DNA from: Stegostoma tigrinum | Lineage: Eukaryota | Assembly (NCBI RefSeq): GCF_030684315.1 | Contig: NC_081375.1 | Span: 37,368,068-37,432,067 of the forward strand | Length of the DNA: 64,000 bases | Direction of reading: 5' to 3' | In this document: one piece after another, positions 4,636 through 49,759 of the stretch | Numbering within the stretch: position 1 is the stretch's first letter | Layout of the letters: each line of letters opens with the position of its first letter | Program-made: the position numbers and the translations under genes | Notes under the pieces: model-generated | Database searches by the model: none | Seen by the model: the letters and a program-made list of their open reading frames with translations, nothing else | What the model was told of the DNA's origin: nothing

Positions 4636-5335
4636 TTAAAGTTTTTGAGAAGGTTTGTAGCTCGGGTTGTGGATGAATTTGTAGACATATTTGCCGAGCT
4701 GATAGGTTTAGTTGCAAATGTTTTGTCACCCTGCTAGGTAACATCGTCAGGTGCTCTGTCCCGCTTGTTATTTATATGTCTCAGTTTGCTGGGGTGGCTG
4801 GTATTACTTTCAGTTCTGTTTCTCAGTGGTTTGTACAAAGAGTTTAATTCAATGTGTTTGTTGATGGAGTTCTGGTTGGAATACCAGGCCTCCAGGAATT
4901 CCTTGATGTGCCTTTGATTGACTTGTGCGATTATCGATGTGTTGCCCCAGTCGAATTCATGACCCTCAGAGATAATGGGAACTGCAGATGCTGGAGAATC
5001 CAAGATAATGAAGTGTGAAGCTGGATGGACACAGCAGGCCAAGCAGCATCTCAGGAGCACAAAAGCTCCTTTGTGCTCCTGAGATGCTGCTTGCCTGCTG
5101 TGTTCATCCAGCTTCACACTTTGTTATCTTGAATTCATGACCCTTGTTGTGCGTGTCTAATGAGATAAGTGAGAATTGGTCGCGTCTCTTAGTGGCTAGT
5201 GTGTGTTCATGTATCCGCACAGTCAATTTTCTTCCAGTTTGACCTAGGTAGTGTTTCTCACACTCCTTGCATGGTATTTTATATATTACCCCTGTTTTGT
5301 CGGTTTTGGGTATGGGATCTTGTACCTTCAAAAGC
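4636..5335 (-). mobile_element. Penelope-like element 3' fragment (GIY-YIG endonuclease plus terminal repeat), interrupted by a hairpin insertion
   Basis: GVIYKIPC..C...YLGQTGRKLTVRIHEH is a GIY-YIG motif. It resumes after the insertion as DWGNTSII...EFLEAWYS...SINKH. A decayed hammerhead motif (CTGACGA-GTTACC..GGTGAC-AAAAC) lies at ~4720-4750. Confidence 0.88.
4967..5130. mobile_element. Fold-back (hairpin) Penelope-terminus insertion, copy A
   Basis: CAGAGATAATGGGAACTGCAGATGCTGG tail followed by inverted arms folding near 5066; 14-bp TSD GAATTCATGACCCT at 4953-4966 and 5131-5144. Confidence 0.9.
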
Positions 5336-5339
5336 TTCA

Positions 5340-7505
5340 CTAAAATCCAAATAAACAACATCTACTGCACTGCTTTCAATCAATCATTTTGGTAACTTCC
5401 TCAAAAAGTTCAATCAAGCTTGTGAGATATGATCTTCCTTGCGCAAAACCATGCTGACTATCCCTAATAAATTTTTGCCTCTCTAAATGTCCATTCATCC
5501 CATCTTTCTTAATCACCTCCAATAATTTACCCACAACTAAAGTCTAACACAAAGGTCTATAGTTCCCCGATTTCCCCTTTGAATCTTTCTTAAACAAAAT
5601 TACAATATTAACCAGGGTCCAGTCATCAGGCACCTAGTTAGAGATGATGCAAATATTTCTGCAAGGTATCTCGTAATTTCCTGTCTTACTTCCCACAACA
5701 TTCTGGGAAACGGTAGACCAGGTCCGGAGATTTATCCATCTTTATATTCTCTAAGAGAATAATGTGGACTGTTTTTAAAACATCACAATTTATTTCTCTG
5801 CATTCTCCAGACGCCATTTAGTATCTCTCCTATCTCCTGGAGTTCAACGCAAAGATGACCTCCTTGATCTTTAACTCTTTAACTGGCCCTACCCTCTCTA
5901 TCGTTACCCTCTTGCTCTTAATGCATTCATAGAATTTGTTTGGATTATCCTTCACCTTATCTGTCAATGCTATCTCATATTCCCTCTTTGCGTTCCTGAT
6001 TTCTCTCTTAGGAATGCCTCCTATACTCTTTATATTGATTAAGAGACTCAGTTGAACTAAGTTGCCTATATCTAAAACAAGATTCACTTTTGTTCTTGAC
6101 TAGAACCTCAATATTTTTATTCATCCATTGTTCCTTAATCTTAGCAGCCTTAGCCTTCAGTCTAACAGGAAAAAAATGCTTCTGACTCTCGTCATCACAC
6201 TCTTGAATACCTCCCACTTGTCATATGTCCTTTTAACCATGAACAGTCTACCCAAATCAACTTTGAAGGTTCTTGTCTGATACCATTAAAATTTGCCTTA
6301 CTCCAATTCAAAACTTTAACTTTTATGGAAGGCTTATCCTTTTCCATAAACATTTTGAAACAAATAGAATTATGATCGCTAGACCCAAAGTTTTCCCCTA
6401 CTTTTACTTCAGTCACCCGCCCTGACTTATTTCCCAAAAGAAGGTCTAATTCTGCTCCTTCTCTAGTAGGAGCATCCACATTTTGATAAAGAAAGTTTTT
6501 TTCAAACACGTTTGACAAATTCTTCACCATCCAAATTTTTAACACAATGGTAGCCCCAGTCAATTTTTGGAAAATAAAAACCCCCATTATTACAATTATG
6601 CTTACATATATCTGAGATCTCACTGTATATTTATTTCTCAATTTCCCTTTTACTATTTGGGGCCTATAGTACAATCCCATCATAGTGATTTTTCCTTTCT
6701 TTTTTATAATTTCTACCCATATATTTTCACTGGATGATTTTTCAGAAATATTTTCCTTAGTTAAAAACGTCATCCCCGCTCGTTTCTTGCCTCCTTTTCT
6801 ACCCTTCCTATAGCATCTGAAGCATCTAAAACTCGGAATATTGAGCTGCCAGCCTTGTTCATCTCTCTGCCTAGTTTCCCTAATAGCTATGATGTCTCAA
6901 TTCCACATTCTTAAACATGCCCTAAGTTCATCACCCTTACTTGTAAGATCCCTTGCATTGAACTAAATGCAATTTACATCTTCAGACTCTGACTCGCTCA
7001 TCTTTCTTTTCTAACTGACGTGCTCTCCTCACATCCAGAATCTTCCCCATCAATCCTTCTATTCACACTGCTACTTAGAATTCTTCCACACCCCCTCTCT
7101 ATCATAATAAAGTCTCCCTTAATAGAATGAGCAAATCTCCCTGCTAGGATATTGGTTCCTTTCAGGTTTAGGTTTGACCCATCCTATTTGAACAGGTCTT
7201 TTCTATCCCAGAAGACATTGCAATTGTCCAAAAACTTGAACAATACACCAGGTCTTCAGCCATTGATTTATTTCCTTTAACCTTTTGTTCCTTCCCTCGT
7301 TTGAGTTTGGCATTGGGAGTAAACTAGAAATTGCTACGTTCAAGGTTCTATTAACAATTTGCTTGAAACGTTTAGAGACATTCTTAATCTTAGCACCAGG
7401 AAAGCAATAAGCCATCCTAAATTTATTCTCACTGCCACAGAATCTCCTGTCTATGCCCCTGACAGGACAGTCCCCTATAACAATAATTCTATTAAATCTT
7501 ATCAA
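5340..7505 (-). mobile_element. Decayed CR1 LINE (ORF1 esterase remnant, ORF2 endonuclease and RT remnants)
   Basis: IVIGDCPVRGIDRRFCG (SGNH/esterase ORF1); GLYYRP, PTREGAELDLLLGN and GSSDHNSI (APE endonuclease); frameshifted RT-proximal sequence. Confidence 0.85.
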
Positions 7506-8169
7506 ACACTGCCTAACCTAAGAATCATAATCCATACACTTATACTAAAAATACAAAATCGAACTGTGAAAACTTGCATTACATGCACAGCTTCTTCTAA
7601 GTCACTAAAATTAATTATGAATCAAAAACAAATGGACCATCCCCTGATTCCAAGCTGAAGTCAGCAATATCGTTCTTAAAGATAATTTGCTACCTGAGAC
7701 AGGTGGAAGGAATACTATTAAGACCTCTCAATCCAATGTTCAATTGAAACATTGGACTAAACAATCCAACTAGTTCCTCAAAAGCTATCCTACATGTGAA
7801 GAACAAAAAGACATTGGTCTGGACAACATATCTGCAAAGGTTTACAGAGCTGACAGTAATGAATTTCCACTCAAATTCTCAGTCCTTTGCGTAAAAAAAG
7901 GTTGGGAAGAAGAGGTACTATTCTTTGACCTCCACAATGCATCATCTTTTTCACTTTTCAAGAAAAAGATAAATAAATTTTTGGGAATTATTGAAGCATA
8001 TCCCTTCTTTCCACTATGCAGTAGATTCACAAATGAATCATTCTGAAATGGATCCTACTGATCAGCAAAAATATCCTTCCAAAGACCCAATGTGGTTTCT
8101 GGTTATTCAGAGGAATTACAGACATGGTATTTGTCACTTGACAAAACCAAGAGATGTTTCTGGAAAAAC

Positions 8170-9040
8170 ATGATTGCACAATGTTCAGCACCATTCGTGA
8201 CTCCTCAGATACTAAAGCAGTCCATGTTCATATGCAACAAGATCTGGACAATATCCAGGCTTGGGCTGACAAGCAGCATGTGACATTCGTGCCACACAAA
8301 TGCTAGGCTATGACCATCACCAATAAGAGACAATCTAACCACTGCCCCTTGACATTCAATGGTATTACCATCACTGAGTCCTCCACTATCAACATTACCA
8401 TTCACCAGAAACTCAACTGGACACATCACATTAACACAGTGGCTACAAGAGCAGGCCAGAAATTAGGAATTCTGTGGTAGTAACTCACCTCCTGACTCCT
8501 CAAAGCCTGTCCATCATCTACAAGACACAAGTCAGCAGTGTGATGGAATACTCCCCACTTGCCTGGATGAGTGCAGCCCCAACAACACTCAAGAAGCTTG
8601 ACACCATCCAGGACAAAGCAGCCCACTTGATTGGCACTACATCCACAAGCATTCACTCCCTCCCCCACTGGCACGCAGTGTGTACTATCTACAAGATGCA
8701 CTGCATAAATTCACTGAATATCCTCAGACAGCGCCTTCCAAATCCACAACCACTTCAATCCAGAAGGACAAGGGCAGCAGACATATGGGAACACCACCAC
8801 CTCCAAGTGCCCCTTCAAGTCACTCACCATTCTGACTTGGAAATATATCGCCATTCCTTCACTCTCACTGGGTCAAAATCCTGGAATTCTCTCCCTAATA
8901 GCATTGTGGGTCAACCCATGCGTGGAGGACTGCAGCGGTTCAAGAAGGCAGCTCACCAGCACCTTCTCAGGGGCACCTAGGGATGGGCAAGAAATGCTGG
9001 CCAGCCATTGATGCCTACATCCCACAAATGAATAAAAGAC
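8170..9040 (+). mobile_element. Non-LTR retrotransposon 3' end (CR1/L2 group RT C-terminus and 3' UTR)
   Basis: IYKTQVSSVMEYSPLAW...KKLDTIQDKAAHLI and SWNSLPNSIV motifs; terminal GAATAAA. Confidence 0.75.
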
Positions 9041-12115: not shown

Positions 12116-13389
12116 TGAGCTCATGTAATGTGGCTGTTGAACAAATATTATGAAGATAAGGTTAATATTTGACAATCAGAGACAGTGGAGCGGTCCATAG
12201 TGGCCATGGTGAGATATAGCTGGCTTGATGATGTTGCCTAGGTTTTTTTAAATTCATTCATTTTTAGGTTTGAGGGCATTGCTGGTTAGGCCAGCATTTA
12301 TTGCCCATTCCTAATTACACAGAAGTGTCAACCAGATTGCTGTGGCTCTGGGAGTCACGTGTAGGCCAGACCATGTATGGGTGGCAGTTTCCTTTGCTGA
12401 AGGATATCAGTGAGTTAGGTGGGTTTTTTTCTGACAACCATCAATGAATTCACGGTTATCATCAGACTATTAATTCAAGATATTTATTGAATTCAGAGGG
12501 CAGGTCTGGGTCTCTGGATTAACAGTCCACTGATAAGACCACTAGGCCTTTGCCCCCCTCTATTAAACTTCTAGCTGCTAGTTGGTGTAAGAGAGACCAT
12601 AAGCCAATCTTTAGCTGTTTTAGTTTTATTCATGGAGTGAAATGTTATATGTCTACAGATGTAACGACACTCACATACCAGTCTTAGCAAGTTTATCTTT
12701 ATTGTATTTTTAGAAAAATCAAATCAACAAAATAACTAAACAATAATCTCTAAGGGTGGAAAAGATGCAGCCCAACTTGGGTTGAGCAAGCCGCCTGCCA
12801 GTGCCTAGACCTGTTGAAGGCACAATAGTCTTTTTGCCTATTTACATCCATTTTGATGACTGCCTTTTCTCCTGTGCTCATTTTGAGAACTTCCATTGCA
12901 TTGGACCACATCTATGAACAAGGACTGCTCTGGTTTGCCACTTCTTTCACTGGTATTGAAAGAATTTACAGGCTGAAAACCATCCTGCTGAGCCACGTTA
13001 TTAATGCACTTTCCATGGTCAACAAGTCCTGGTGTGGAACTTGAACTTTAACATTTAAATGCATTGGTAGGAATCATCTACTGCACTTCAAGATCTCCAA
13101 AACAGAGCTCTTCTATCTTCGGCATACTCATCTGCTTAACACAGACAGCCGCTTTCCCCATTTGGCAAATTGAACACCACTCCCCCACACAACAGATGGG
13201 TGAACTAATCATTAAACTAAAAAGTAGCCATCAAAAATTATTAATTGATTGAATATCCGTCAGCTACCATGATGGAATTTGAATGAAATATCCCTGGATC
13301 ATTAACTTGGGCCTCTGTATATCTAGTCCAGTGACACTATCATGACACCACAATATCTCCTGCTTAATTCTCTTTATGTATGTTCCAGT

Positions 13390-14740
13390 CAACCTGTTCA
13401 GAAATATTATGACATACTTCTGGAGCAAGTAGAACTTGAACCTGGGTCTCCTAGCTCAAACGTACAGACACAACTACGACATCAAGAGAGTCCTTAGTTC
13501 TCTGTTTAAAAAAAATGTAACCTATTTTTCTAAGCAACTTGTTCAGAGATGTAACTACACACCTCTGGGGCAGGTGGGACTTGAACCCTGGCCTCCCAGT
13601 CCAGGGATAGAGACACTAGCACTGTGCCAAGGGAGGCCCCCAAAAATGAAGAATCAAGCAAGATGAGAAATGCAGTTGGCAGAGTTTGAACCTGAGCAGG
13701 AAGACCCCAATGGATTTCAAATCCATTGTCTTAACAATTTGGCCACAGATACAGGACTTAATTCTCTTTATACTCTTTTCAGTAATCAAATAAATTAATT
13801 AGCTAATTAACTAAAGTACTACCCTTTTAAACAGCCACTATAACAAAAACAAAACTCTAGAAGAAACTTATCCAATTTACATTAATATATCATTTTCAGG
13901 ATAGATGATGCACTCCATCATCTGCAGTGTCCAGTTGCTGAAGGTCCCAAGAGTAACAGTGCTCACTACATGCTTCCTCTATGGGACAGAATGACAAAAG
14001 ATGCTGACAGATGGGTCTAATGAATCCCTGCTCCATCCACTGATTGGCTCTTTTGAAAGCAAGTTTTGCCAGGACAAGGAGTAGACACAGAAGGATGTCC
14101 ATCTGATTTGCCACTCCCCTCTATACAGGTGGCCAAATAATAGGAATGCAGGACTGAAATACAATCAAAAATTCAGATGCAGTCGCTTCAAATAAGGAAA
14201 AAGGCCCTGTTATCGAAGACAGTCTGTACAAACATGGAAAAGAGATTCCATGAGCCTGCACAAAATATTGGTGATCTGGGAGTGCATGAAACACCTTAAA
14301 GCCTATTGCATGGAACAGGTAAATGCAAGACCCTTCAAGTCGTTCCCCCACCATGGTAAAAGGGAGGACTCCTGCATAAACTGCTTCCAATATGGAACCC
14401 CCACCACCTCTCCACAGCAAGACAGAGAACATGTCTGGGCAATCTCTCTGAGCTGAACTCAAATGTCTTTTTTTTCTTAATCAACCTGTTCAGAGATATT
14501 ATTACACTCCTCTCGAGCAGGTGGGACATGTACCCAGGCATCTTGGTCCGGGAGTAGGGGCACTACCCTGGTACCACAAGAGGGCCTTTTGGAATATCCC
14601 TTTATTTTAATTTAACCTTTGTTTTCTAATTAACTTATTTAGTGATGTTATTACACACCTCTGAAACAGGTGAGACTTGAACCCAGGCCTCTCTGGTGCT
14701 AGGGCAGAGACACCACCACTGTGCCACAAGAGGGCCCTTG
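13390..14740 (-). repeat. Cluster of ~105-bp tRNA-like SINE units (about 13390-13495, 13535-13640, 14482-14590, 14630-14738)
   Basis: Four similar units AACCTGTTCAGAGAT.TTA.TACACACCTCTGG.GCAGGTG.GACTTGAACC...; B-box GGTTCAAGTC on the minus strand. A partial copy is also at ~23665-23725. Confidence 0.7.
13671..13752 (-). pseudogene. tRNA-Ser(UGA) pseudogene
   Basis: Minus strand GTATCTGTGGCCAAATTGTTAAGACAATGGATTTGAAATCCATTGGGGTCTTCCTGCTCAGGTTCAAACTCTGCCAACTGCA aligns end to end (82 nt) with recalled vertebrate tRNA-Ser-TGA; many differences are at CpG sites. Confidence 0.8.
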
Positions 14741-17029
14741 GGAATGTCTCTTTAAGCTGTTTTGAGTAAAGGAGAAACCAATGAGCAGATTAATCAACTG
14801 AAAGTCCTTTAAGGGGCACTGTACCACAAACAAAATTCTAACATGAAATTTGTTAATCAAAAATAAGATGTTACTTCCAGAATGAAGATGCATTCCAGCT
14901 CCCAGAATCTCTTCACACTCTTCTGAGTAAAAGATGAGTGATTGAAACAAAAATAAACAAAAAAACTAGTGAACACCATTTTAGCAGGCACTATAACAGA
15001 AGTCAAAACATTGATAGGGCCTTAACCAATTAAGTGAAAACACCATTGTGCAAGAGTTAATGTACTCCAAGGCCTTGTGGTGTCCGCAGGTCTTGGAAGG
15101 CCTCAAGCACAACAGTGGGTTCTGCGTTCTTTGTCTCTATGGACATTAGAACATGGAAGAGGGAGGCAGAAAGGCCAAAGAACCCCTCAACTTCCCATTG
15201 CTTAGACCTGTTTGTGGCCACAATGGCCAACCCAGGAGTAGGCTAACAAGAAGGTCCTACGCTGTACTCCCCCCATATCCCCTCTGTACTGTGTCGCCAA
15301 AGATTGAGAAGACTTAGCTAAAGTGCTCAAGTAACTACCCAAACAATTCCTTCAATATGTATATACTTAACCTTACAAAAAAAATGCTGATTGCAAGCAT
15401 TTCCCTGGCTACAATTATATAGGTAGGTGCAGTCCTCCCTGCCAAATGACAGAACAGAGCTATTGGAGCAAGATGCTGTGGTCAACCTTGTCAAGCTGGC
15501 AAAAAGATGGAGAAAAATGAAGAGGGATAATTTATCTTTGTCACAATCATGTACAATGTCACATGTAATGTTGATAAAGGCATTTTTATTAAGTGACAGG
15601 AATAGAAATCTGATTAGAAGGGATCATACATGGAGTTCTGAGAAAGGTGTACACACATGTGGGTGATTACACATGTTCCTGGACTTTGGAAAGAGAAAAA
15701 GGAGGTTGGAGATAGGTCAGGGCAGTAGTTTGGAGAATAGAGTAGTCAGATATTTGAACATATGGGTGATAAGATTTGCAGGAGAAGAAAACAGTTAACA
15801 ATATCAGCTAACCTGGGCCAACAAACAGAATTAGATCATTTGCTATTTGGTTAGAATAGGGCATAGAGAACAAGAAAAAGTCTTGTAGGCAAGATGAGAT
15901 TGAGGAGAAACGGGTAAGGAATAAAGGAATAAGAGAGAGATATTTAAGATCAAGCCTAGAGCAAGGAGAAACTGAGTGGACATATTGCTGTATGTCCTGA
16001 GCAAGGGAGAGAATCATCAGAGATAGCAGAATGGTCTCAATCTTTGTAACAAAAGAAGTACACAAGGAACTAGAACTTGTTCAAGGTAGGGTGGAGAGGA
16101 CAGGTGACAGGGATTTGAGGAGATATCCATAGTGGAGAAGCTGTACGATATCTTTGCAATTCATGATTATCAGGAAAAGTGTGCAGTTTTGGCAGGAGAT
16201 AGTGGAATTCAGTAGTATTTTACATAGTCCAGTTTACATAGACCTGCAGTTGTATGGTCAAGTCAGTAATTTACCATAGACATTCAAGTCTGCACTCATC
16301 AAAGCAATTGAAGAATGCTTCATTATGCCCTGAATTCCTATGTCTCGATGGGTAGAGTTGAAGATTGTTAGATTCCATCTTATTTGATATGGTCATAAAT
16401 GATTAATAATTTTGACTAAGCAATTAAATTATATTCTGCTTAACTGTAGTTAACATAGGACACCTTTTTGTCACAAAACTAACCCAGCTTGTAACTCAAC
16501 CCTTACTTGAAAGGGGGAACACTGCTATACCACCGAATGAGAACTTGTTGTCTTACAAAATTGAATGAGCAAGTTTACATCATTAAACACTTTTCAAGTA
16601 CCTGCCATTTGTCATTATCAGAGGAAAGCTGAATGTGCTTATAATGTGAAGTGTGGAAAAGAAAAATAACAGCTGTGTTCTACATTAGGCTAGTTTTATC
16701 TGTAGTATTTTAGAAACAGAGAAATAATTATTATTTGCTCAATGTATTCTTTGTATTAGAGTTAAAATCTGCCACAGTGTGAGTTTAGTTTTCTGGCTAT
16801 ATAATCCTTTTGGACTTTTATCCTCAAAACCATGTTCTATCTGAATGTCTAAATATACTTCACTAACTAGTCTTTCACACATTGATCGTCATTATGCATT
16901 TTTACTTTATACACTGTTTAGTTTTTTTTAAGTCCTGGTTGTATCTCTTTCATCCAACACACTCTGGTTTGGTAACCTTTGTTGTCTAGCATCCACAGTA
17001 TTTCTGGTTTTCCAAAGTACGAGCAAGGT

Positions 17030-19944: not shown

Positions 19945-20445
19945 CCTGGATATCCAAGATAACAAAGTGTGGGGTTGGATGAACACAGCAGGCCAAGCAG
20001 CATTTTAGGAGCACAAAAGCTGACCTAGAGCCTTCATCAGAAAAGGGGGATGGGGAGAGGATTCTGAAATAAATAGGGAGACAGGGAGAGGGGGACTGAA
20101 GATGGATAGAGGAGAAGATAGGTGGAGAGGAGAGTATGGGTGGGGAGGTAGGGAGGGGATAGGTCAGTCGGGGGAGGACGGACAGGTCAAGGGGGTGGGA
20201 TGAGGTTAGTAGGTAGGAAATGGAGGTGTGGCTTGAGGTGGGAGGAGGGGATAGGTGAGAGGAAGAACAGGTTAGGCAGGTGGGGATGAGCTGGGCTGGT
20301 TTTGGGATGCAGTGGTGGGAGGGGAGATTTTAAACTGGTGAAATCCACATTGATGCCATTGGGCTGCAGGGTTTCCAAGCAGAATATGAGTTGCTGTTCC
20401 TGCAACCTACGGGTGGCATCATTATGGCACTGCAGGAGGCCATCA
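19945..20445 (-). mobile_element. Penelope-like element 3' end (endonuclease C-terminus, pyrimidine-rich 3' UTR, terminal repeat with CTGATGA)
   Basis: GLLQCHNDATRRLQEQQLIFCLETLQPNGINVDFTS is a PLE C-terminus. It is joined to the same terminal sequence as the hairpin copies (GAACACAGCAGGCCAAGCAGCAT...AGGAGCACAAAAGCTGAC). Confidence 0.85.
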
Positions 20446-20861
20446 TTAGCAAACACGTATGTGGTTTATATGAATGATATGGAAAGTTCTCCTTGCTAAT
20501 GCCTAGTAGTTTGCCCCACATTGGGAGAGCTGTTCCACAAGCTTGTGAAGTTACAGCCTGACTTTGTCAGTTTGGTCTGATTCCATGACTGTGATTATGT
20601 TCTAGACATCACCACCACCATCCCTGGGAAGTCCTATCTGATTGGCAAGGCAGACATAGCACCCTTAACATAATGAAACATTACAAATAGTGTCACAGGA
20701 ATTTTGAAGAACGAAGTATGACACTAAACCTCAAAGGAAGCGTTATGTTGGACAATCAAAAACTCTAAGGGAGTGGGTTTAAAGAGGAAAGCAAGTCAGA
20801 AAGGTGAAGGGAATGGAGAGAATTTTAGAGCTTGGGGTTGAGGCAACTGAAGGCACAGTCA

Positions 20862-26860: not shown

Positions 26861-28155
26861 CATCTGAGTCTAACATTTCCTGCTAATATTTCCTCATTAG
26901 CTTGGATTGGCCGACCTGTCCCGGCTGTAACTTTTGCCCAAAACAAATCTCTGATTTCACATTTTAATCGGTAGGCAGCGAAGGAGGGAAGTTTTGTCTT
27001 CCATGTTCTAATAACAACTTGCATTTGTGTCGTGCTTGTATCATCGACAAACATCTTGGAGCGGCTTCACGGAGATACTCGGATGTTAACTGGTCAGATG
27101 AGACGTTAAGAAGGGGTGGTCAGCAGTTTGGACAGAGGTTAGTTTATAGGAAGGTTTTATAAACAATAGAAAACGAAGTCATAACGATAAATTGATGGGA
27201 AGAAGAGGGGGAGGAAGGAATGATTTGGTGGAGGTTACAACAATAGGATGACACCATGAAGGGCTTAATAAATCAATCCAAGGCTTTGAGAAGCGCGATG
27301 TCCAGAGTGGGAAGGAAACTGCGTAGTAGATACCTGGCTGAGTTGAGTTTACAGTGAGGTTAACCAGTGAAGCATAGTCATAGTTAAGGGGCTTAACGTA
27401 AATGAAGACTCGGGATTGTTTTAGGGGGAGGAGTGTGCCCTGATGTTACTGGTGCAGAGGTCAGAAGGTCCTTGGATGGAGAGGAAGCACAATCCAAGTT
27501 GCAGGAAAGATGAAAAGGATATGCGGTGAATGAAGACAATGTGGTCAAAGACTTAGGTTCTTTTTGCAAAGGGGTGGTAAATAATGTAGCAGTCTCAAAT
27601 TACATTTTTGAGGGACATTTTGGTTCTGTGATAAGGGGGAAAAACCTGATGGAGAACAATCAATAGGTTTGATGTAGTGGACTGGTTGGAGAATTTAGGG
27701 AATGTATGGTGGAGATGGGCATGAGTTCAGTAGGTAACAATAATCAAGAAATGTTACAATATCAGGCATCATGTGGGATCCAAATGGGATTTTGAATGAT
27801 CTACAGATTAGTTGGAATGGGTTCAAGGAAGTCCCATGGATGAGCTTGTAAAGGGAAAACTGGCAGACAGGAGAGGAATTAGAGAAAACTAGAAGGCTAG
27901 GGCAGAGGAATCTAGAGTAGGCTTTGCGTAGAGAAGCAATTGAATGAATGTTCTTAATAATAGAGCTAAAGGCCGACTCTCATTTAGGAATGGATAAATC
28001 AGTTTATGGACATGGCTGGTAGTGGAGAAGAGAAACTGAAAACTATTGTTGATCTCCAAGATAACCCAAATAGAGCATGTAAAAATAGTTTAATTGCTTT
28101 GCTAGATAGACATTTCACATTTTAATTAGGAACTGTGTAATATGAAAGATGGTAT

Positions 28156-28380
28156 CAGAGATAATGGGAACTGCAGATGCTGGAGATTCCAAGATAATAA
28201 AATGTGAGGCTGGACGAACACAGCAGGCCAAGCAGCATCTCAGGAGCACAAAAGCTGATGTTTCGGGCCTAGACCCTTCATCAGAGAGTCTCTGCTGAAG
28301 GGTCTAGGCCCGAAACGTCAGCTTTTGTGCTCCTGAGATGCTGCTTGGCCTGCTGTGTTCGTCCAGCCTCACATTTTATT
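28156..28380. mobile_element. Fold-back Penelope-terminus insertion, copy B (in the presumed MFSD6L 5' intron)
   Basis: Tail plus ~90-bp inverted arms with axis at 28288; a hammerhead-like CTGANGA-GGGTCTAGGCCC-GAAAC motif in each arm; TSD (T)AATATGAAAGATG at 28138-28151 and 28380-28393. Confidence 0.92.
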
Positions 28381-28494
28381 AATATGAAAGATGTATTGTT
28401 TAGAGATCTTGAATTAAATCCATTTTTTGTCTAATTTTTTTGGTTGTTTTTTCAGATTACCAACTGGAATGTTTTTTGGGAAAATTATAGAGCC

Positions 28495-30441
28495 ATGAAG
28501 AGAAACAAACAGTGGAATGTCAGCAAAGCACTGGCTCTTGCCAGTCTCTATCACTTTCTTCATAGTGCAGCAGCAGCCTGTGTGGTTCCGTTCCTTACTA
28601 TATACTTCAGGCAGCTTGGATTGACTGCACAATTTGTTGGCATTATCATGGGAGTAAAGTATTTTATCTTCATGCTTTGTACTCCCTTTTGGTCTTACTG
28701 TGCTGGGCGCCATAACAAAAGGAGAGTTCTTATACTTGGTTCCTTGTTGTCATCAGTAGGAGCAGGCCTTCTATTCACACTCATTCCACCTATAGATAAG
28801 GAAATAGAATACAAATTCTGTAACAGAAGTATATATGCAAAAAACGGTTGGAATCAAAATACAAGACCAGAAGTCAAAGACCATATCAGTGACATTAAGA
28901 TGAATAAATTTGCATATACCATTCTTCCAACAGTAGTGAATGGTGCTTTAACAAGCCTTCCTAGTTCAACACTCCAAGCTGAAATTGAAGAAAACTTCCC
29001 GAGGCTGACCACTGTTGAATCATCTATTACAAACAGAATCAACCGTCTAAAACGGCCACACAAGACTGAACTGAGCAATGTTACATATTCATATGTATCA
29101 ACTCCATCAGAAAATAGAGGTAGTACACAAACTGGAGATGATAATCGTCAATCAAAGTTGAACCAATTTCTGCAGATGAAAGACTCTGGCCATGTAAGAA
29201 CCAAGGTAGAATCTGCCAAGCATTTTCCTTTTAAAGAAGATAACAAGGAGAAAAACAGTACTTTAGATGTTTATTCTACTTCAGTTAACAGTGCCATCAT
29301 GAAAAGGGATGTTGCTTTGAAAACTGGCTCTGAAGACCGATTAGAAAAGCAGCACATTAACACTGAGCCTGATCACAGTTTTAAAATTCTAGACAACCAA
29401 CACCAGACACTCGTGCTTATTTTACTAGCTGTGGCTCTATGGGAAGTTCTAGCATCAGCTTTGGAGTGGGTTGCAGATGATGGGCTCTATGACTATCTGG
29501 ACTGTGTTGACTCTGTTGACCGTTATGGTAAACAGTGGATTTGGGGTTACTTGGGCACAGCTGGAGCATCTTTTAGCATAGGGATTCTTGTGGATAGGCT
29601 GCACTGTTTTATTAATGCATATACTTCTAGGATTGCAGTGCATTTTTATGGTTATGCAGTGTTGATTACATTGACACTTCTTGTTGGTGTGTTCTATCCA
29701 ATTCATACAGCTAAGAAAAATGACATGATAAACCGCACTGTCAAAGGATTACATCTGTTGGGAGGTGATGGAAGGGCTATGTTATATGTGATCACAGTCT
29801 TTATCACAGGAGCTATTAGATCTACAATAAACAACTTCCTGTTCTGGCAAATGCAGAACAATGGAAGCAGTGAGACTTTTATGGGCATTGCTGTAGCAAT
29901 TGGATTTATAGCTGAAGTTCTACTTTATCTTTTCAAGGACAAAATGTTAAAGATCTTGTCATTCTCTGGATCAGTGGCATTTGGACTTGTTTGCCTCACA
30001 GCCCAGCTGCTTTATTATTCGTTCCTCTGGTCCTCTTGGGCAGTATTGCCTATTCAAATCCTGAATGCTTTTAGCAATGGTGCCTTATGGTGGGCTGTTT
30101 GGGGACAAGCTAATGATTTAGCTACCCCTGGTATTGAAAGAACACTCCTTAAAATCTACCATGTTTTATCCTTTGGTCTAAGTGCAAGCATTGGCAGTGT
30201 TTGCAGTGGCTTCATTGTGAACAATTTTGGCATAGAAAGACTTTATCAAGCATGTTCAGCTATTGCTATGGTTTGGTTAGTGGTCTTCCTCATTGTACAG
30301 TCAAAAATTCCTCGGCAAAAGAGGGTAAACTATTCGCGGCTCTTAGCTGATACCAGTGATATGAGTGACTCGGATGATGAGCAAGGTAAAGATTGGCTTA
30401 TTACAGCTCTGAAAAATGATGACTTTTACAGAAGTAGTTAG
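28495..30441 (+). CDS. MFSD6L: Major facilitator superfamily domain-containing protein 6-like (648 aa, single coding exon)
   Basis: Intact ORF from GCCATG. MKRNKQWNVSKALALASLYHFL...CVVPFLTIYFRQLGL N-terminus, long low-complexity loop, YGKQWIWG motif, further TM helices, C-terminal YSRLL...SDSDDEQGKDWL. Splice acceptor TTTTTTCAG ends at 28455. Confidence 0.95.
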   Translation: MKRNKQWNVSKALALASLYHFLHSAAAACVVPFLTIYFRQLGLTAQFVGIIMGVKYFIFMLCTPFWSYCAGRHNKRRVLILGSLLSSVGAGLLFTLIPPIDKEIEYKFCNRSIYAKNGWNQNTRPEVKDHISDIKMNKFAYTILPTVVNGALTSLPSSTLQAEIEENFPRLTTVESSITNRINRLKRPHKTELSNVTYSYVSTPSENRGSTQTGDDNRQSKLNQFLQMKDSGHVRTKVESAKHFPFKEDNKEKNSTLDVYSTSVNSAIMKRDVALKTGSEDRLEKQHINTEPDHSFKILDNQHQTLVLILLAVALWEVLASALEWVADDGLYDYLDCVDSVDRYGKQWIWGYLGTAGASFSIGILVDRLHCFINAYTSRIAVHFYGYAVLITLTLLVGVFYPIHTAKKNDMINRTVKGLHLLGGDGRAMLYVITVFITGAIRSTINNFLFWQMQNNGSSETFMGIAVAIGFIAEVLLYLFKDKMLKILSFSGSVAFGLVCLTAQLLYYSFLWSSWAVLPIQILNAFSNGALWWAVWGQANDLATPGIERTLLKIYHVLSFGLSASIGSVCSGFIVNNFGIERLYQACSAIAMVWLVVFLIVQSKIPRQKRVNYSRLLADTSDMSDSDDEQGKDWLITALKNDDFYRSS

Positions 30442-34839: not shown

Positions 34840-35081
34840 AAAGAAACAAAGAACAGCAGATGCTGTAAATGAGAAACAAAAATAAAACTTGCAAGAAAAA
34901 CTCAGCATCTGCAGAGAGAAAGCAGAGTTTATTTTTTGGGTCCAGTGAGCCGCCTTCAGAACAGTAAAATACAGAACATTCTGAAGAAGGCTCACCAGAC
35001 CTGAAAGGTTGACTCTGCTTTCTCTCCACAGATGTTGACAGACCTGCTGGGGTTTTCCTGCCATTTCTGTTTTTTGTTTTT
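34840..35081. mobile_element. Older fold-back insertion from a second Penelope-terminus family
   Basis: Diverged inverted arms around ~34970 with a CTGAAGAAGG...CCTGAAAG hammerhead-like core; flanked by AAGTTTTT(n)GACA on both sides. Single-arm relatives at ~49375-49500 and ~54650-54755. Confidence 0.7.
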
Positions 35082-40950: not shown

Positions 40951-43808
40951 AGCAAGCAAGAAGTTGGTTTGAAGTGTGTCTACTTCAATGCCAGGAGCGT
41001 CCGCAATATGGTGGGTGATCTTGCAGCATGGGTTAGTACCTGGGACATCGATGTTGTGGCCATTTCGGAGACATGGATAGAGCAGGGACAGGAATGGTGT
41101 TGCAGGTTCTGGGATTTAGATGTTTCAGTAAGAACAGAGAAGATGGTAAAAAGTTGGGTGGGGGGGGTGGGTGTGTGGCATTGTTGGTCAAGGACAATAT
41201 TACAGTTGCAGAAAGGATGTTTGGGGACTCGTCAACTGAGGTATTTTGGGCTGAGGTTAGAAACAGGAAAGGTGAGGTCATCCTTTTGGAAGTTTTCTAT
41301 AAGCCTCCGAATAGTTCCAGAGATGTAGAGGAAAGGATAGCTAAGATGATTCTCAATAGGAGTGAGAGAGACAGGGTAGTTGTCATGGGGGACTTCAACT
41401 TTCCAAATACTGACTGGGAACACTATTCGAGTACTATGGATGGGTCAGTTTTTGTCCAGTGTGTGCAGGAGGGCTTCCTGACACAGTATGTAGATAGGCC
41501 AACAAGGGGCAAAGCCACATTAGATTTGGTACTGGGTAATGAGCCCAGCCAGGTGTTAGATTTGGAAGTAGGTGAGCACTTTGGTGATAGAGATCACAGT
41601 TCTGTTATGTTTACTTTAGTGATAGAAAGGGATAGGTGTATACCACTGGGCAAGAGTTATAGCTGGGGAAAGACAATTACGATGAGATTAGGCAAGATTT
41701 AGGGAGCATAGGATGGGGAAGGAAACTGCAGGGGATGGGCACATTAGAAATGTGGAGCTTATTCAAAGAAAAGCTCCTGTGTGTCCTAGATAAGTATGTA
41801 CCTGTCAGGCAGGGAGGAAGCTGTAGAGCGCGGGAGCCGTGGTTTACGAAGGAGGTAGAATCTCTGGCCAAGAGGAAGAAGAAGGCTTATGTTAGGATGA
41901 GATGTGAAGGCTCAGTTAGGGCGCTTGAGGGCTACGAGGTAGCCAGGAAAGACCTAAAGAGAGAGCTCAGAAGAGCCAGGAGGAGACATGAGAAGTTGGC
42001 GGATAGGATCAGGGTAAACCCTAAGGCTTTCTATAGGTATTTAAGGAATAAAAGAATGACGAAAGTAAGATTAGGGCCAATCAAGGATAGTAGTGGTAAG
42101 TTGTGTGTGGAGACAGAGGAGAGAGGGGAAGCACTAAATGAATATTTTTCAACAGTATTCACTCTAGAAAACGGCAATGTTGTAGAGGAGAATACAGAGA
42201 TACAGGCTACTAGACTAGGTGGGATTGAGGTTCACAAAGAAGAGGTATTAGAAATCCTACAGAGGGTGAAGATAGATAAGTCCCCTGGGCTGGATGGATT
42301 TATCCTAGGATCCTCTGGGAAGCCAGGGAGGAGATTGCTGAGCCTTTGGCATTGATCTTTAACTCGTCATTATCTACAGGAATAGTGCCAGATGACTGGA
42401 GGATAGCAAATGTGGTTCCCCCGTTCAAGAAGGGGAGTAGAGACAATCCTGGTAATTATAGACCAGTGAGCCTTACCTCAGTTGTTGGTAAAGTGTTGGA
42501 AAAGGTTATAAGGGATAGGATTTATAATCATCTAGAAAAGAATAAATTGATTAGGGATAGTCAGCACGGTTTTGTGAAGGGAAGGTCGTGCCTCAAACCT
42601 TATTGAGTTCTTTGAGAAGGTGACCAAACAGGTAGATGAGAGTAAACCGGTTGATGTGGTGTATATGGATTTCAGCAAGGCATTCAATAAGGTTCCCCAC
42701 AGTAGGCTATTGTACAAAATGCAGAGGAATGGGATTGTGGGAGATATAGCAGTTTGGATCGGAAATTGGCTTGCTGAAAGAAGACAGAGGGTGGTAGTTG
42801 ATGGGAAATGTTCATCCTGGAGACCAGTTACTAGTGGTGTACCGCAAGGGTCGGTGTTGGGTCCACTGCTGTTTGTCATTTTCGTAAATGACGTGGACGA
42901 GGGCGTAGAAGGATAGGTTAGTAAATTGGCAGATGACACTAAGGTCGGTGGAGTTGTGGATAGTGATGAAGGATGCTGTAGGTTGCAGAGAGACATAGAT
43001 AAGCTGCAGAGCTGGGCTGAGAGGTGGCAAATGGAGTTTAATGCAGACAAGTGTGAGGTGATACACTTTTTGGTAGGAGTAACCGGAAAGCAAAGTACTG
43101 GGCTAATGGTAAGATTCTTAGTAGTGTATGAGCAGAGAGATCTCGGTGTCCATGTACATAGATCCTTGAAAGTTGTCACCCAGGTTGACAGGGCTGTTAA
43201 GAAGGCATACAGTGTTTTAGCTTTTGTTAATAGAGGGATCGAGTTCTGGAACCAAGAGGTTATGTTGAAGCTGTACAAAACTCTGGTGCACTTGGAGTAT
43301 TGTGTACAGTTCTGGTCACTGCATTATAAGAAGGATGTGGAAGCTCTGGAAAGGGTGCAGAGGAGATTTACTGGGATGTTGCCTGGTATGGAGGGAAGGT
43401 CTTACGAGGAAAGGCTGAGGGACTTGAGGCTGTTTTCATTAGAGAGAAGGTGGTTGAGAGGTGACTTAATTGAGACATATAAAATAATCAGAGGGTTAGA
43501 TAGGGTGGATAGGAAGAGCCTTTTTCCTGGGATGGTGACGGCGAGCACGAGGGGGCATAGCTTTAAATTGAGGGGTGAAAGATATAGGACAGATGTCAGA
43601 GGTGGTTTCTTTACTCGGAGAGTCGTAAGGGAATGGAATGCTTTGCCTGCAACGGTAGTAGATTCACCAACTTTAGGTACATTTAAGTCATCATTGGATA
43701 AGCATATGGACGTACATGGAATAGTGTAGGTTAGATGGGCTTCAGATTGATATGACAGGTCGGCACAACATCGAGGGCCGAAGGGCCTGTAATGTTCTCT
43801 GTTCTACG
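40951..43808 (+). mobile_element. Young 5'-truncated CR1 LINE with near-complete ORF2
   Basis: CVYFNARSV start, [34 protein letters not shown] and WNALP motifs with few frameshifts; (TTCTATG)-like tail; TAACTCA direct repeat at 40944-40950 and 43809-43815. Confidence 0.95.
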
Positions 43809-44094: not shown

Positions 44095-45155
44095 CCGCAG
44101 GGCTCAGTGATGGGGCTCTTGCTGTGTGTTATTTACATCAATGATTTAGGCTTGAATGTAGGAGGGATGATTATTAAGTTTGCAGAGGAAACAAAATTAA
44201 TGGGATGGTAAATAGTGATGGTGATTGCCTTAGATTACAGGAGGATATGGATGGGCTGGTCAAGTGGGCTGAGTGGTGGCAAATGGAATTCAATCTGGAT
44301 AAATGTGTGGTTATGTACTTGGGCAGGACAAACAAGGTAAGGGAATAAATGATGAACAGTAGAACCTTAGGAAGCTCCAAAGATCTGAAGGACATTGGTA
44401 TGCATATACACTGGTCACTTAAGTTATCAGAACAGGTGGCTAAAGTGGTTAAGAAGGCATATGGTAGACTTGGATGCTCTTGGCCTGCTGTGTTCATTCA
44501 GCTCCACACTTTGTTATCTTGGATTCTCCAGCATCTGCAGTTCCCATTATCACTCATATGGTAGACTTGACTTTATTAGTCAGGACAGAGCATTTAGTAG
44601 CAGGGGAACTCTAGCTACTGCCTAAATAACCTGCTATAGAGTATTGTGCGCAGTTCTGGAGTCCACATTCTAGAATGGATGTGACAGTGTTAGAGACAGT
44701 GCGGAGGAGATTTATGAGGATGTTACCGGGGCTGGAGACTTACCGTTATGACGAGAGATTAGACAGACTGGGTTACTGGAATAGAAGAGATTGAGAGAGG
44801 GCTTGACTGGGATGTATAAAATTATGAGAGGGATAGATAGGGTAGACAGGTAGAGACTTTTTCCCCTTGATGGAGGGATCAAACGACTGGGGACACATTT
44901 AAGGAGACATGAGGGAAAGTTTTTATACCCAGAGGGTGGTAGGAATCTAGAAGTCTGCTGTAGGGGTGGTAGAAGCAAAAATCCTCATCACATTTAAGTG
45001 GTATTTAGATGTGAATTTGCGATGCAAAGGCATACAAAGCTATGGGTTAAATTGTGAAAAATGGGGTGAGAGTCGGTGGGTGGTTGTTTTTGAATGGCAT
45101 GGATGCACTCGGCAAAGGGCCTTTGTCTGTGTGTAGATCTTTCTGACTCTATGAC
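44095..45155 (+). mobile_element. Decayed CR1 RT 3' fragment
   Basis: Decayed DNA equivalent of the WQMEFN.DKC and YCAQFWSPH motifs, followed by a CR1-type 3' UTR. Confidence 0.75.
44473..44554 (+). mobile_element. Single-arm Penelope-terminus insertion (same family as hairpins A-D) nested in CR1
   Basis: TTGGCCTGCTGTGTTCAT...TCTCCAGCATCTGCAGTTCCCATTATC; 15-bp TSD CATATGGTAGACTTG at 44458-44472 and 44555-44569. Confidence 0.85.
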
Positions 45156-45864: not shown

Positions 45865-45980
45865 AATGCATCGGTCTATATCTTTTTGATCTGTACATCC
45901 TTGCTTATTATGATCTTCTTGTAAACAAAGCTGTACTTTGGTACACACGACAATAAATCAATCAATCAATCAATCAATCA
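45865..45980 (+). mobile_element. LINE 3' tail ending in an (AATC)n microsatellite
   Basis: GACAATAAATCAATCAATCAATCAATCAATC tail, typical of non-LTR element 3' ends. Confidence 0.55.
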
Positions 45981-46046
45981 CAGTGATTTGATCAGAACAT
46001 TCTTTGACTTGTATTCAACTGTCAAAGATTTGGCTAGCTGATTGAA

Positions 46047-46485
46047 AGTGAAGATTGCTGGTGAAATCCTTGATTTTGCCAATCATTTTTGTCTGCACAA
46101 CGTATCCTATTATTTTCCTATTCAATCAAACTAATGCTTGAAGTTAAATTTAACATTTTTAAAATTTTACCTTACATAAACTGAGCAAATTGGCAAGATG
46201 AGCTTTCAAATTGTTATGGTACTTGATTGAAAGGGCTATCAGGTACTTCAGGTACTTCACACAATTCTAACTATTTAGGTACTTCAGGTTATATAGCCCT
46301 TTCAATCAAGTACCATAACAATTTGAAAGCTCATCTTGCCAATTTGCTCAGTTTATGTAAGGTAAAATTTTAAAAATGTTAAATTTAACTTCAAGCATTA
46401 GTTTGATTGAATAGGAAAATAATAGGATACGTTGTGCAGACAAAAATGATTGGCAAAATCAAGGATTTCACCAGCAATCTTCACT
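46047..46485. repeat. 193-bp inverted repeat with 53-bp spacer
   Basis: 46047-46239 is the reverse complement of 46293-46485, with no mismatch found by eye. Confidence 0.95.
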
Positions 46486-46737
46486 AGAATAGAATAGCAC
46501 TATCCTGGATTCTCAATTTTTTTTTTAAGAAGGATGGGGAGAACTTATGTTGGGAACATAGAAGGTTGAAGTAGCACAGAACTGCTTGAAAAGTTGTCAT
46601 CTTGTAGATCTGAAGATTAATTTTCCACAATTCCTGTGTACTACGTTTATTGAACTCAAATGACAGCAGTCATGCCTTGAATTCATCGTTTGGAATGCAA
46701 GCCCTCCCAAAAACAGAGCAATTTAGGAGTAGGAGCA

Positions 46738-46929
46738 GAGATAATGGGAACTGCAGATGCTGGAGAATTCCAAGATAATAAAATGTGAGGCTGGATGAAC
46801 ACAGCAGGCCAAGCAGCATCTCAGGAGCACAAAAGCTGACGTTTCGGGTCTAGGCCCGAAACGTCAGCTTTTGTGCTCCTGAGATGCTGCTTGGCCTGCT
46901 GTGTTCATCCAGCCTCACATTTTATTATC
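46738..46929. mobile_element. Fold-back Penelope-terminus insertion, copy C
   Basis: Tail plus arms folding at the CT|AG of GGGTCTAGGCCC (46851/46852); 14-bp TSD TAGGAGTAGGAGCA at 46724-46737 and 46930-46943. Confidence 0.92.
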
Positions 46930-48950
46930 TAGGAGTAGGAGCAACCTGTTTAGCCTCTTGAACCAATTCTCCAATTTAAGTTTAGATCATGATTGATCTG
47001 CTTCTTAACTTCATTAACCTGCCTTGGTTTTATATCACTTAATCGACTTGACTAGCAATGAAATTTGAAATTTAAAACGTCTTTGCCTCAATTGGTTTTG
47101 AGGGAGTATTTCAGTTTCCACTAATGTTGCATGATGAAGACTTCCTGATATCACTTCTCGGTGACTTGCTCTTATTTTAAGATTGATCCATTTTTCTGGA
47201 ATTCTCCCGTCATGGGAAAAAAATGGTCCTCTGTTCTGTCAAATCCTTTACTCATCTTAAATATTTAAATTATATCATCACTTAATCTTCTTGAGTGAAC
47301 ACAAGCCCAATCTGTAATCTTCCTCAATTTGAGTCTTTTAGCTCCAAGTCATTCTAATCAAAATGCAGTGTAAGGTCAAAAGGCGAATATATCGTTTCTG
47401 AAGTGTAGACTATCTCTTGAACAAAAACAAATGAATAAAACAGACTATCTCTGCCAGTAGATGGATAGTAAAATTCCAATATAGTATTTGAATTGGAAAC
47501 AGCTGTCACTTTTGGCTGAAACAACAATCAAACATAATTAAATAGAATCAATGATTGAGGAACATGTTTCCTACACAATGGGAATACACCTCCTTTTGAG
47601 ACAGATTGCATCATTTGAACTGTAAGCAGATCCATCTAAATAATTTGCGTTATGAAGCTACTGATCAGTTGAAGATAATTATTAAATGTCACATCTAGTT
47701 GGCCCCAAACTAATGTTCTAAGCCCCAATTTATAAATGTTTAGAAATTCTGCAAAATATATTTGCAATTTTTTAGAATTAAATTCTGTGTTGTCACAGGA
47801 TTGCAAGATGTATGTAATTTTCTTATTTCATGAATAGTCAGTGTTCTCTGCATACAGACTGCTGTTGTCATGGTAGCACAGATAAAATGCTTTTATAATG
47901 AACTGAATTAAAATGATTTGGATATGTTTGACAATCTGGTCATCTAAATTCCACAGTTGCACAACCATATGTTAAATTAACATGTAAAAAGAGTGAATAG
48001 GGAATTAAATAATGTTACATATAATTACATCACAATTGTCTACTTTTCGCTATTTATTTCAAGTCCAAATGTATTGCCTTTTACAAAAGGCACCTGTTAA
48101 TATAAGTGCAGTTACTAAGACAGTTTTATTTTCTCTAATGGTTTACAATTTCCGTTCTGACCATTGCACATATTAACAGATCATAATTGAAACGGGACAT
48201 TTGATTTGCCTGAAATATTAATGTAAATGGTGAATAGTCCAGATCAAATGTTTGGTGCAAACATATACTTTCTAAAGTGATACTATGACCTTTTAGTAAT
48301 TTGGGGGCATGTGTACAAATGAAGGTGGCTGTATTGAAATAACCTGTAATCAACTTGTGTCACCTTTCTCCTACGTACAGTATTCCATGTTTCATTTACT
48401 TTGCATGTGAAATGGCTTTGAAATTTCCTTATTTCATTTCTCCTAAAAATTGTTAGTCCCGCATGGGACCTATATTTGAAAAATGCCCAAATGCACAATA
48501 TGCACGTTTTTGAATATATATGTATTCAATGCATAAGACTTCCAATGTTTGACAGATTCACAGATATGGTTCCTGCTGCCAATGTTACTTGCCCCATTTG
48601 ACACTTGGCTGAGTCAGATTTGTGTCAGTGCCTCATAAATAGAAGCAGAATATTGGAAAATTTACATTTTGTAGAGTCTAGTGGGGCAGCGTACTGTAAA
48701 TAACCTCCAAGTAATACTTGACTATCCATTTTTCTTTACTTACAAATTCCCAACTCTACAGAAATTGTGAAGGATATGTGGGCAGAAGGCAATGTTAATT
48801 TATAGATTACACGGTTGTGAAGCTGGGTGAACACTAGCAGGCCATCAATTAATTTATAGATTGCTGCTTTTCTTGGCCACTAGATGTCAGTGCTGCCATT
48901 TACAAACACACTACTTTTAGAATTTATAAACAGCTTGTAATTCTACTTCT

Positions 48951-49129
48951 AAAATGTGAGGCTGGATGAACACAGCAGGCCAAGCAGCATCTCAGGAGCA
49001 CAAAAGCTGACGTTTCGGGCCTGAAACGTCAGCTTTTGTGCTCCTGAGATGCTGCTTGGCCTGCTGTGTTCATCCAGCCTCACATTTTATTATCTTGGAA
49101 TCTCCAGCATCTGCAGTTCCCATTATCTC
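48951..49129. mobile_element. Fold-back Penelope-terminus insertion, copy D (tail on the right)
   Basis: Arms fold at GG|CC (~49019/49020); 15-bp TSD TGTAATTCTACTTCT at 48936-48950 and 49130-49144. Confidence 0.92.
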
Positions 49130-49759
49130 TGTAATTCTACTTCTGACCAGTCAAGTGTTACAGTGCTTTTCAACAGCTGTATGGGCTGCAATGTAAAATC
49201 TAATGATTTGGTCACACCTCTGGTTTATAGTTACGACTTTGATAGTGGCAATAATTTGTATGAACACAAACATTAACTGAAAGTGATGTAATTTTAAGTG
49301 TCAAGTATACTTTTCAGATGCTTCATTTGCTGGTTTCCCCTCAAACTCACGTGAATCTAGAAATAAGTTCTGAAGAAAGTGAACTGGACCCTAAATGTTA
49401 ACTTTGCTTTCCCTCCACAGATGCTGCCAGACCTGCTGAGTTTTTCCTGCAACTTCTGTTTTTGTTTCTGATTTCCAGCATCCACAGTTCTTTTGGTTTT
49501 TGTATGTCTCAATTCATGGCCTGATTGCTGTCGCATTTCCATTACAGCAGCGATAGGCCCATCCACTTGACTTTGACTTTATTCTCAAATCTTTCCAGCT
49601 GCAGTGCCTGCCTCCCTCCAGTGCCTATCAAAGAAAGTGAATCATTCACAAGTCCAGACCCTGCTCTTTGGACTTCTTATTCAAGATTATATTGTCTTGT
49701 CACTTTCCTTTAAAACTTCTTACAGTATGTCCTTCTTTCACCATGCTTTAGCCTCTCAT

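Follow-up and report, generated by a model that had tools for sequence, protein, structure and literature searches.

Penelope-like elements (PLEs) are typically laid out with an inverted truncated copy and a tail of 30–40 bp on one side (PMC8557442), and the origin of these inverted ends and of the one-sided tail is described as unresolved (PMC8557442, PMC11167929; here and below, published work is cited from excerpts). A 64,000-nucleotide stretch of Stegostoma tigrinum DNA (contig NC_081375.1, positions 37,368,068–37,432,067; hereafter the window, numbered from its first base) raises this question in a compact form, since it holds four young hairpin insertions derived from a PLE terminus. An earlier reading of the letters alone, here called the original prediction, had offered two explanations: a frequent abortive fold-back during PLE integration, or a self-propagating hairpin retroelement. 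We conclude that the hairpins are textbook PLE insertions at minimum size and not a new class. We favor, with a probability of roughly 0.6, the reading that they are dead-end insertions made anew by an autonomous PLE via two-ended target-primed reverse transcription. The analysis covers this one window, with 4 young hairpins, 6 target sites and 7 young pieces (A–F and H).

Structure of the insertions

We scanned the whole window for inverted pairs of at least 25 nt with arms no more than 1 kb apart; four of the seven pairs found are the hairpins A–D. All four lay where they had been predicted, the limits of B being refined to 28152–28379. Hairpin A (4967–5130, minus strand) consists of a tail arm (4967–5067), two unmatched bases and a short arm (5070–5130), with 61–62 bp paired at the cost of 3 mismatches and 1 gap. 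Hairpin B (28152–28379, minus strand) is the longest, with 91 bp paired, 2 mismatches and an axis at 28288, 3 nt 5′ of a hammerhead core discussed below. The arms of C (46738–46929, minus strand; 74 bp paired, no mismatch) meet via the GGG/CCC stem of hammerhead helix II, and those of D (48951–49129, plus strand; 69 bp paired, 1 mismatch) fold without a loop about the GGCC palindrome of the same helix. Overall lengths are 164–228 bp. The unpaired tail is confined to one side in all four; it had been described as about 35 nt long, but its length varies from 35 to 43 nt, and in B four additional bases (28152–28155) separate it from the flanking repeat. Arm-to-arm substitutions total six, four of them of the CpG-decay type. 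The absence of coding capacity and the low divergence, both noted earlier, were upheld.

Two smaller young pieces share the terminus. Piece E (44473–44554, plus strand) is a single tail-bearing arm inside a remnant of a long interspersed nuclear element (LINE), which we take to be CR1-like. Piece H (48809–48848, minus strand) is a tiny, tail-less arm of 40 bp, more diverged, which we found by a self-search of the window. H was missing from the original list of copies, as was a tail-plus-hairpin of an older, related family (about 34840–35075), whose arms are 78% complementary and whose possible decayed target-site duplication (TSD) is at chance level. This older hairpin also has its tail on one side only, so that the same asymmetry is seen in five copies from two families.

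The direct repeats are target-site duplications

The young pieces are flanked by short direct repeats: 14 bp for A (4953–4966 and 5131–5144), B (28138–28151 and 28380–28393), C (46724–46737 and 46930–46943) and H (48795–48808 and 48849–48862), and 15 bp for D (48936–48950 and 49130–49144) and E (44458–44472 and 44555–44569). As predicted, the repeats of A–E are exact and mutually unrelated in sequence. A shared repeat of at least 14 bp occurred in just 4 of 3,000 random pairs of windows, and a TSD of 14–15 bp is present in six of the seven young pieces, the exception being F (see below). For F and three older-family copies, the best candidates matched at 8, 8, 9 and 10 of 14 positions, where the chance mode is 8–9. 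No sequence bias was detected within the TSDs (P = 0.16).

We then reconstructed empty sites in silico. Removal of hairpin A with one repeat kept restored an open frame of 124 codons, whereas stops interrupted all six frames when two or zero repeats were left. The restored frame resembles a GIY-YIG domain (blastp against the PLE protein P0001, E = 1e-5), although Pfam recognized GIY-YIG in its first half only at E = 0.007; the host of A is an older remnant of a different PLE (4734–5322, GIY-YIG region) whose frame is still open. At site E, the version with a single repeat aligned gap-free at the site to a paralogue at 43100–43330 (alignment scores 90, 87 and 70), the margin of the one-copy over the two-copy version being small. 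A blastn search of the six reconstructed empty sites against the window gave a nucleotide match across the junction for none. The direct repeats are thus true TSDs, with two sites, A and E, backed by in-silico empty sites.

These results bear on the idea that the palindromes arose through repair or recombination after insertion, or through errors of assembly, which we consider highly improbable. Inverted PLE structures are reported to trouble assemblies, and an unrelated perfect inverted duplication of 193 bp lies 250 bp from C. Against this, an exact TSD bounds each hairpin, the empty sites are clean, the arms differ by six substitutions of which four look like CpG decay, and the asymmetry recurs in five copies from two families. 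Assembly artefact in particular was rejected as unlikely on the strength of the true TSDs and the CpG-decay differences between arms.

The target sites share a symmetric motif

Half-sites were read outward from each TSD edge, giving 12 half-sites from six insertions. They share a dyad motif that lies outside the TSD and reads NNYTGYTY outward from each nick: a pyrimidine stands at +3 in 12/12 half-sites, T at +4 in nine, G at +5 in eight and T at +7 in nine. The summed information over +1 to +10 is 4.88 versus 2.0. This strength was reached in 1 of 20,000 genomic draws, in none of 10,000 local draws and in none of 3,000 draws that were allowed the best of 21 offsets. With any single site dropped, P stayed at 0.003 or less, and the motif persisted in the five sites of the original prediction alone and in the four hairpins alone. 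From +11 to +20 the signal falls to background (P = 0.57), and the right halves can be predicted from the left ones (P = 0.0005). In leave-one-out ranking, C came within the top 0.01%, B 0.15%, D 4%, E 6%, H 12% and A 31%; the best-scoring half-site is that of C (46944–46953, plus strand), with its partner at 46714–46723 on the minus strand. None of the six target sites is a microsatellite. In the older hairpin, only one of the two flanks resembles the motif by eye; the older copies give no independent test of it because their TSDs are at chance level. The symmetric target motif is statistically firm on six sites, and the dyad and its constant stagger imply that nicking takes place twice, in symmetric fashion.

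A PLE terminus as the source of the hairpins

The original prediction named as parent a copy in which the same terminus is joined to the C-terminus of a PLE endonuclease (EN). This copy, F (19946–20444, minus strand), is a 5′-truncated PLE that comprises the GIY-YIG C-terminus, the 3′ untranslated region (UTR), a deleted hammerhead and the terminus, with most of the tail gone. The junction of terminus and GIY-YIG C-terminus stands. As to parentage, F carries a 9-nt deletion within the hammerhead, differs from the hairpin arms at 5–7 of about 55 columns and has a best TSD of 8 of 14, at chance level; it is an older relative of the hairpins and not their literal parent.

The window contains just the EN C-terminus of the parent open reading frame (ORF), and Pfam did not recognize the 60-residue fragment in F. 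In a search with the F peptide (20310–20447), fourteen of 19 candidates matched, the best being proteins that pair a reverse transcriptase (RT) with a GIY-YIG domain, from Rhincodon typus (86%) and S. tigrinum (84%). In P0001, one of the proteins matched by the F peptide, Pfam detects RVT_1 (E = 9e-5, short of the curated cut-off) and GIY-YIG (E = 9e-5, past it), with a CX4CxxC linker before GIY-YIG. The S. tigrinum protein P0005 reads on across the 3′ UTR and ends in this terminus, where 13 of 15 residues are identical to B, so that the link between ORF and terminus holds outside the window too. To judge from these alignments, the terminus belongs to an RT + GIY-YIG PLE of carpet sharks, and the PLE origin of the hairpins is supported through F, P0001 and P0005. 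A CX2-5CxxC linker before GIY-YIG marks the Neptune and Nematis clades (PMC8557442); by this linker motif, the parent is probably of Neptune type.

The terminus had also been described as hammerhead-bearing, which holds in full for B only. There, the tail arm contains a putative minimal type I hammerhead (28254–28287, minus strand; core start 28284, predicted cut 28257/28256), and a motif scan found this one core in the window. By sequence, it has the core boxes, a palindromic ACGU, an additional base following position 9 and, closing helix II, a G-C pair; minimal PLE hammerheads show these features, the palindromic ACGU replacing helix III (PMC4209133). Both core copies of B bear one substitution, a G-to-A adjacent to the core. 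C and D retain the 3′ part of the core, and A has none of it. Rfam at gathering level reported no ribozyme in the whole window, its sole hit being a weak tRNA-like match at 13671–13752, and when B was scanned against Rfam by E-value, the 10 matches were all under the cut-off and none was a hammerhead.

Further relatives are older. Two single arms of the older family, one with its tail (49363–49500, plus strand) and one with most of the tail missing (54650–54757, plus strand), start just 5′ of the hammerhead core. A short old fragment at 16940–17015 is like the tail of that family, and 63363–63930 is a degenerate PLE fragment of RT and thumb, interrupted by frameshifts and stops, that shares about 50% identity with P0001. 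Outside the window, the predicted protein P0017 ends by reading through a hairpin of a related subfamily (residues 239–294), so such hairpins leak into gene models. It was the only relevant one of three matches in a search of a 1.84-billion protein library for read-through proteins; two word-indexed searches for more yielded 0 of 6 and 0 of 5 candidates, and two exact-pattern scans of GTDB genomes gave no match, as expected for a shark repeat. PLEs are reported to be expanded in whale shark introns (10.1101/443036).

Start points, junctions and arm variants

In all five tail-bearing young copies, the tail end varies by −2 to +4 nt around a single point, and the short arms begin 35, 41, 37 and 43 nt inside the tail end in the four hairpins and 41 nt inside it in H, a spread over an 8-nt zone. 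We compared the last six TSD bases with the template at the short-arm start. Matches numbered 18 of 30 against 9.4 under a null that models chance TSD extension (P = 0.002); the four hairpins alone gave 14 of 24 (P = 0.009), and removal of the terminal run and first mismatch left 15 of 25 (P = 0.0005). Short arms thus begin at points at which template and target primer are alike (P about 0.002). The internal start also occurs outside hairpins, in H, F and the arm at 54650.

One way to obtain such copies anew is self-priming, in which the cDNA, or an antisense template, folds near the hammerhead and copies itself; the product is joined to the second nick by microhomology 35–43 nt short of the tail, and some centers collapse later. 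This would account for the identical arms of each copy, for a one-sided tail without a second RNA and for the microhomology where the short arm ends. In rotifers, palindromes found where PLE copies meet in inverted order have been interpreted in this way, and an antisense template has been proposed (PMC3846280). The center of B could form a closing loop of 3 nt, but D is loop-free. The loop of C has the orientation of a strand that starts at the short arm, so that a simple fold-back of tail-primed cDNA cannot produce C unless a later deletion is invoked, and the internal end occurs without a hairpin in the three copies just named. A dyad target agrees with a pair of active subunits, but need not involve two cDNAs. 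We regard self-priming as rather unlikely. For the original prediction this means that formation anew is favored, and that “abortive fold-back” is probably the wrong mechanism, given the loop orientation of C and the symmetric target sites.

The junctions and the variants of the arms speak to the other explanation offered earlier. The four fold axes are all different, all within about 36 nt spanning the hammerhead, so that no two copies have a common internal junction (n = 4, and the junctions are relatable by deletion). The tail arm of A terminates exactly at the predicted hammerhead cut and is followed by the two unmatched bases. In the P0017 hairpin, 15 more residues lie between the arms than in D, which places its axis just outside that of B, and the older-family arms start just before the core, like B; together these suggest a recurrent 5′ limit of the template just before the hammerhead core, as read from the sequences of B, P0017 and the old family. 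As to variants, one private to B is shared by its two arms and missing from the nine other rows, and two A-type variants are likewise common to the arms of A and missing from the six arms of B, C and D. No column separates long from short arms, and C and D are identical across their shared arm columns. This pattern fits arms that were both copied from one source at insertion, with low power, and conversion between arms could mimic it.

A self-propagating non-autonomous hairpin would start from a B-like master that is transcribed and then replicated in full by the PLE enzyme, its center being shortened by slippage at short repeats; we consider this improbable. On this improbable reading, the B-like unit would be a retroelement resembling a short interspersed nuclear element (SINE), with a duplex RNA whose free tail is the sole cis-signal and with insertion at dyad sites. 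The density of four hairpins in 64 kb, the identity of C and D, the shorter cores that equal B minus single deletions, and the shared fold just 5′ of the core in B, the old hairpin and P0017 can all be read in this way, and non-autonomous PLE derivatives are known from published excerpts. To obtain three arm haplotypes that are uniform within their copies, several masters or repeated rounds of conversion would be necessary, and arm-specific variants are absent. Moreover, short-arm ends vary over 8 nt and track the target sequence, single-arm and long copies have the same TSD length and target motif, the RT would have to unwind a 60–90 bp duplex RNA, and both cores of B are mutated.

The original prediction had proposed the fold axes as the test between these explanations. 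Axes, arm lengths and TSDs were tabulated in the window and the axes do differ, but the test is weaker than it seemed. That different axes prove an origin de novo was rejected, as C, D and A are each one deletion away from the B core.

A proposed model of two-ended priming

We propose the following course of events for two-ended target-primed reverse transcription. A dimeric enzyme would bind the two inverted half-sites and nick the strands 14–15 bp apart; the half-sites are those of the observed motif, and the dimer is our supposition. The first nick would prime cDNA at the start site at the tail end, and the second would prime another cDNA 35–43 nt further in, placed partly by the loose pairing of primer and template. 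The start zones and the microhomology are seen in the copies; initiation by the RT at two starts is modeled on the biochemistry of a PLE from Anolis. Both cDNAs would halt after 60–135 nt in the hammerhead region, where the junctions cluster, perhaps at the RNA 5′ end before the core (B), at the helix II hairpin (C and D) and at the self-cleavage site (A). The 3′ ends of the cDNAs would then be joined head to head via short self-complementary words or by end-joining. Priming at one end would leave a single arm (E and H) or a longer truncated copy (F), H being an insertion started at the internal site alone. Two RNA templates and a role for the ribozyme would likewise belong to this model.

The Anolis element (PAc, from Anolis carolinensis) provides the closest biochemical likeness: its purified protein nicks and extends both strands, two start sites about 70–100 nt downstream of the hammerhead cut delimit the tail, the RNA used is uncleaved, as B, C and D would need, and a dimer has been modeled (PMC11167929). 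The PLE proteins at hand do not include the N-terminal region that makes up the dimer modeled for PAc.

Several points weigh against the two-ended model. It does not explain the strict asymmetry between an arm with a tail and an arm without. A single central deletion, with 1 mismatch, would convert the B core into C, D or A, since any palindromic word of an arm recurs as a direct repeat on the other side of the axis; the diversity of axes and the loop orientation of C can thus also be read in another way. Ribozyme cleavage is linked to the junctions by one copy, A, whose junction site is also a 4-nt palindrome; helix I of the putative hammerhead has just 2 bp, and the fold of the monomer pairs the core away. 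A 2-bp helix I also occurs in a D. virilis variant (PMC4209133). The target preference is loose, with strong leave-one-out ranks for B and C only, and the motif window was picked after inspection of the data, which comprise six sites, four of them hairpins, from one window. In the excerpted Anolis study, initiation proceeds without homology to the cut DNA, in contrast to the microhomology here, and start sites show no difference between strands, both of which count against a direct transfer to the shark; that study also found no RNA ends at the hammerhead cut, and its element is of the Poseidon clade (PMC11167929).

Relation to known elements

Like canonical PLEs with an endonuclease (EN+), the shark insertions have a head-to-head inverted copy, a one-sided tail, a short TSD and a palindrome at the junction, together with strong 5′ truncation, a putative hammerhead motif in the terminus and an RT + GIY-YIG parent. 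The inverted copy of PLEs has been likened to a terminal inverted repeat (PMC8969392 and its supplement). The shark hairpins differ in having neither an ORF nor a tandem pseudo-long terminal repeat (pLTR) between the arms, in their size of 164–228 bp and in a TSD of 14–15 bp, compared with 8–10 bp in rotifer examples (PMC3846280). The inverted form is the majority here (4/7 young pieces), whereas the excerpt of a curation guide calls it “occasional”, and no full tandem copy of pLTR, ORF and pLTR is present in the window. The dyad target also departs from the microsatellite bias reported for Neptune, which leaves PLE membership unaffected. From PAc, the shark parent, with its CX4CxxC linker, differs in clade; PAc prefers ATT, and the excerpt describes its starts as lacking homology to the target and mentions neither TSDs nor joined hairpin products (PMC11167929).

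Short new insertions and paired hammerheads have been seen in other PLEs: in Chlamydomonas, the median length of new insertions is 128 bp (PMC9977147), and hammerheads on opposite strands lie 100–700 bp apart in Schistosoma (PMC4209133). UCON13 is listed as Penelope (PMC5753468). Excerpts of four further sources (PMC9004415, PMC6765202, PMC2377424 and PMC5718144) had little bearing on the question.

Three other systems look similar. MITEs (miniature inverted-repeat transposable elements) are also short, non-coding, hairpin-forming and numerous. In the shark copies, however, one arm overhangs by 35–47 nt, lengths (164–228 bp) and ends vary, and the terminus is tied to an RT + GIY-YIG retroelement and not to a transposase element; MITE identity was rejected on these grounds. 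In twin priming by L1, the two segments derive from different parts of one RNA. As proposed for the shark hairpins, both overhangs prime cDNA there, giving an inversion within the TSD, and the second primer pairs internally (PMC9148063). By contrast, the shark arms overlap fully, so that either a second pass or a pair of RNAs would be needed, and an 8-nt zone confines the second start. Non-LTR retrozymes are likewise non-coding, derived from a PLE pLTR, related to the hammerhead and found in a chondrichthyan, but they are built as tandem arrays running head to tail, and every unit has a complete type I hammerhead (10.64898/2026.07.22.740005). The shark insertions are single head-to-head units with a mostly incomplete core, one core being present in the window, and retrozyme identity was rejected.

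A pure tail-plus-hairpin form of PLE was not found in a literature search that covered few subscription papers, nor were PLE twin priming or a dyad PLE target. The novelty of the form is thus partial, as the pure hairpin is absent from the literature searched and its general arrangement is known from PLEs. Repeat libraries contain hairpin-like Penelope remnants, and a consensus for the hairpin may well exist. Judged against the literature searched, what is new is the dyad target motif, the short-arm microhomology and the axes in the hammerhead region.

Implications and neighboring features

In such short insertions, both priming points, the junction and an intact TSD can be read within 250 bp. 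If the two-ended reading is true, it could explain the inverted ends of PLEs. A dyad target whose stagger is fixed at 14–15 bp would speak, in vivo, for a PLE endonuclease that acts as a dimer, and would also be relevant to insertion tools based on retroelements. If the density is typical, an extrapolation from 4 hairpins and 7 young pieces in 64 kb, copies in a carpet-shark genome would number in the tens of thousands for each gigabase, enough to separate two-ended priming from self-priming computationally.

Such hairpins would be mislabeled as MITEs or as microRNA precursors; B scores against several precursor models, under their cut-offs. Each hairpin places a duplex of 60–90 bp in every transcript running across it. 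The end of B lies about 65 nt ahead of a tract resembling a splice acceptor, which precedes a 668-codon open frame (28435–30441) with an MFS_1_like domain, presumably MFSD6-like, and the pre-mRNA may carry the 91-bp duplex.

Three further repeats were noted. The perfect 193-bp inverted duplication near C (46047–46485) has a 53-nt spacer with three copies of a 9–10 nt word; it has no other copies in the window and no resemblance to the PLE, and may have arisen very recently by repair with templated inserts or reflect an error of assembly. The weak tRNA-like Rfam match at 13671–13752 (29.8 bits) lies amid repeats spaced by about 145–150 bp (13380–14754, and 23656), which are probably copies of a tRNA-derived SINE. 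Finally, an inverted pair of 151 nt at 50163–50808, 74% complementary and 344 nt apart, probably represents two opposed LINE fragments.

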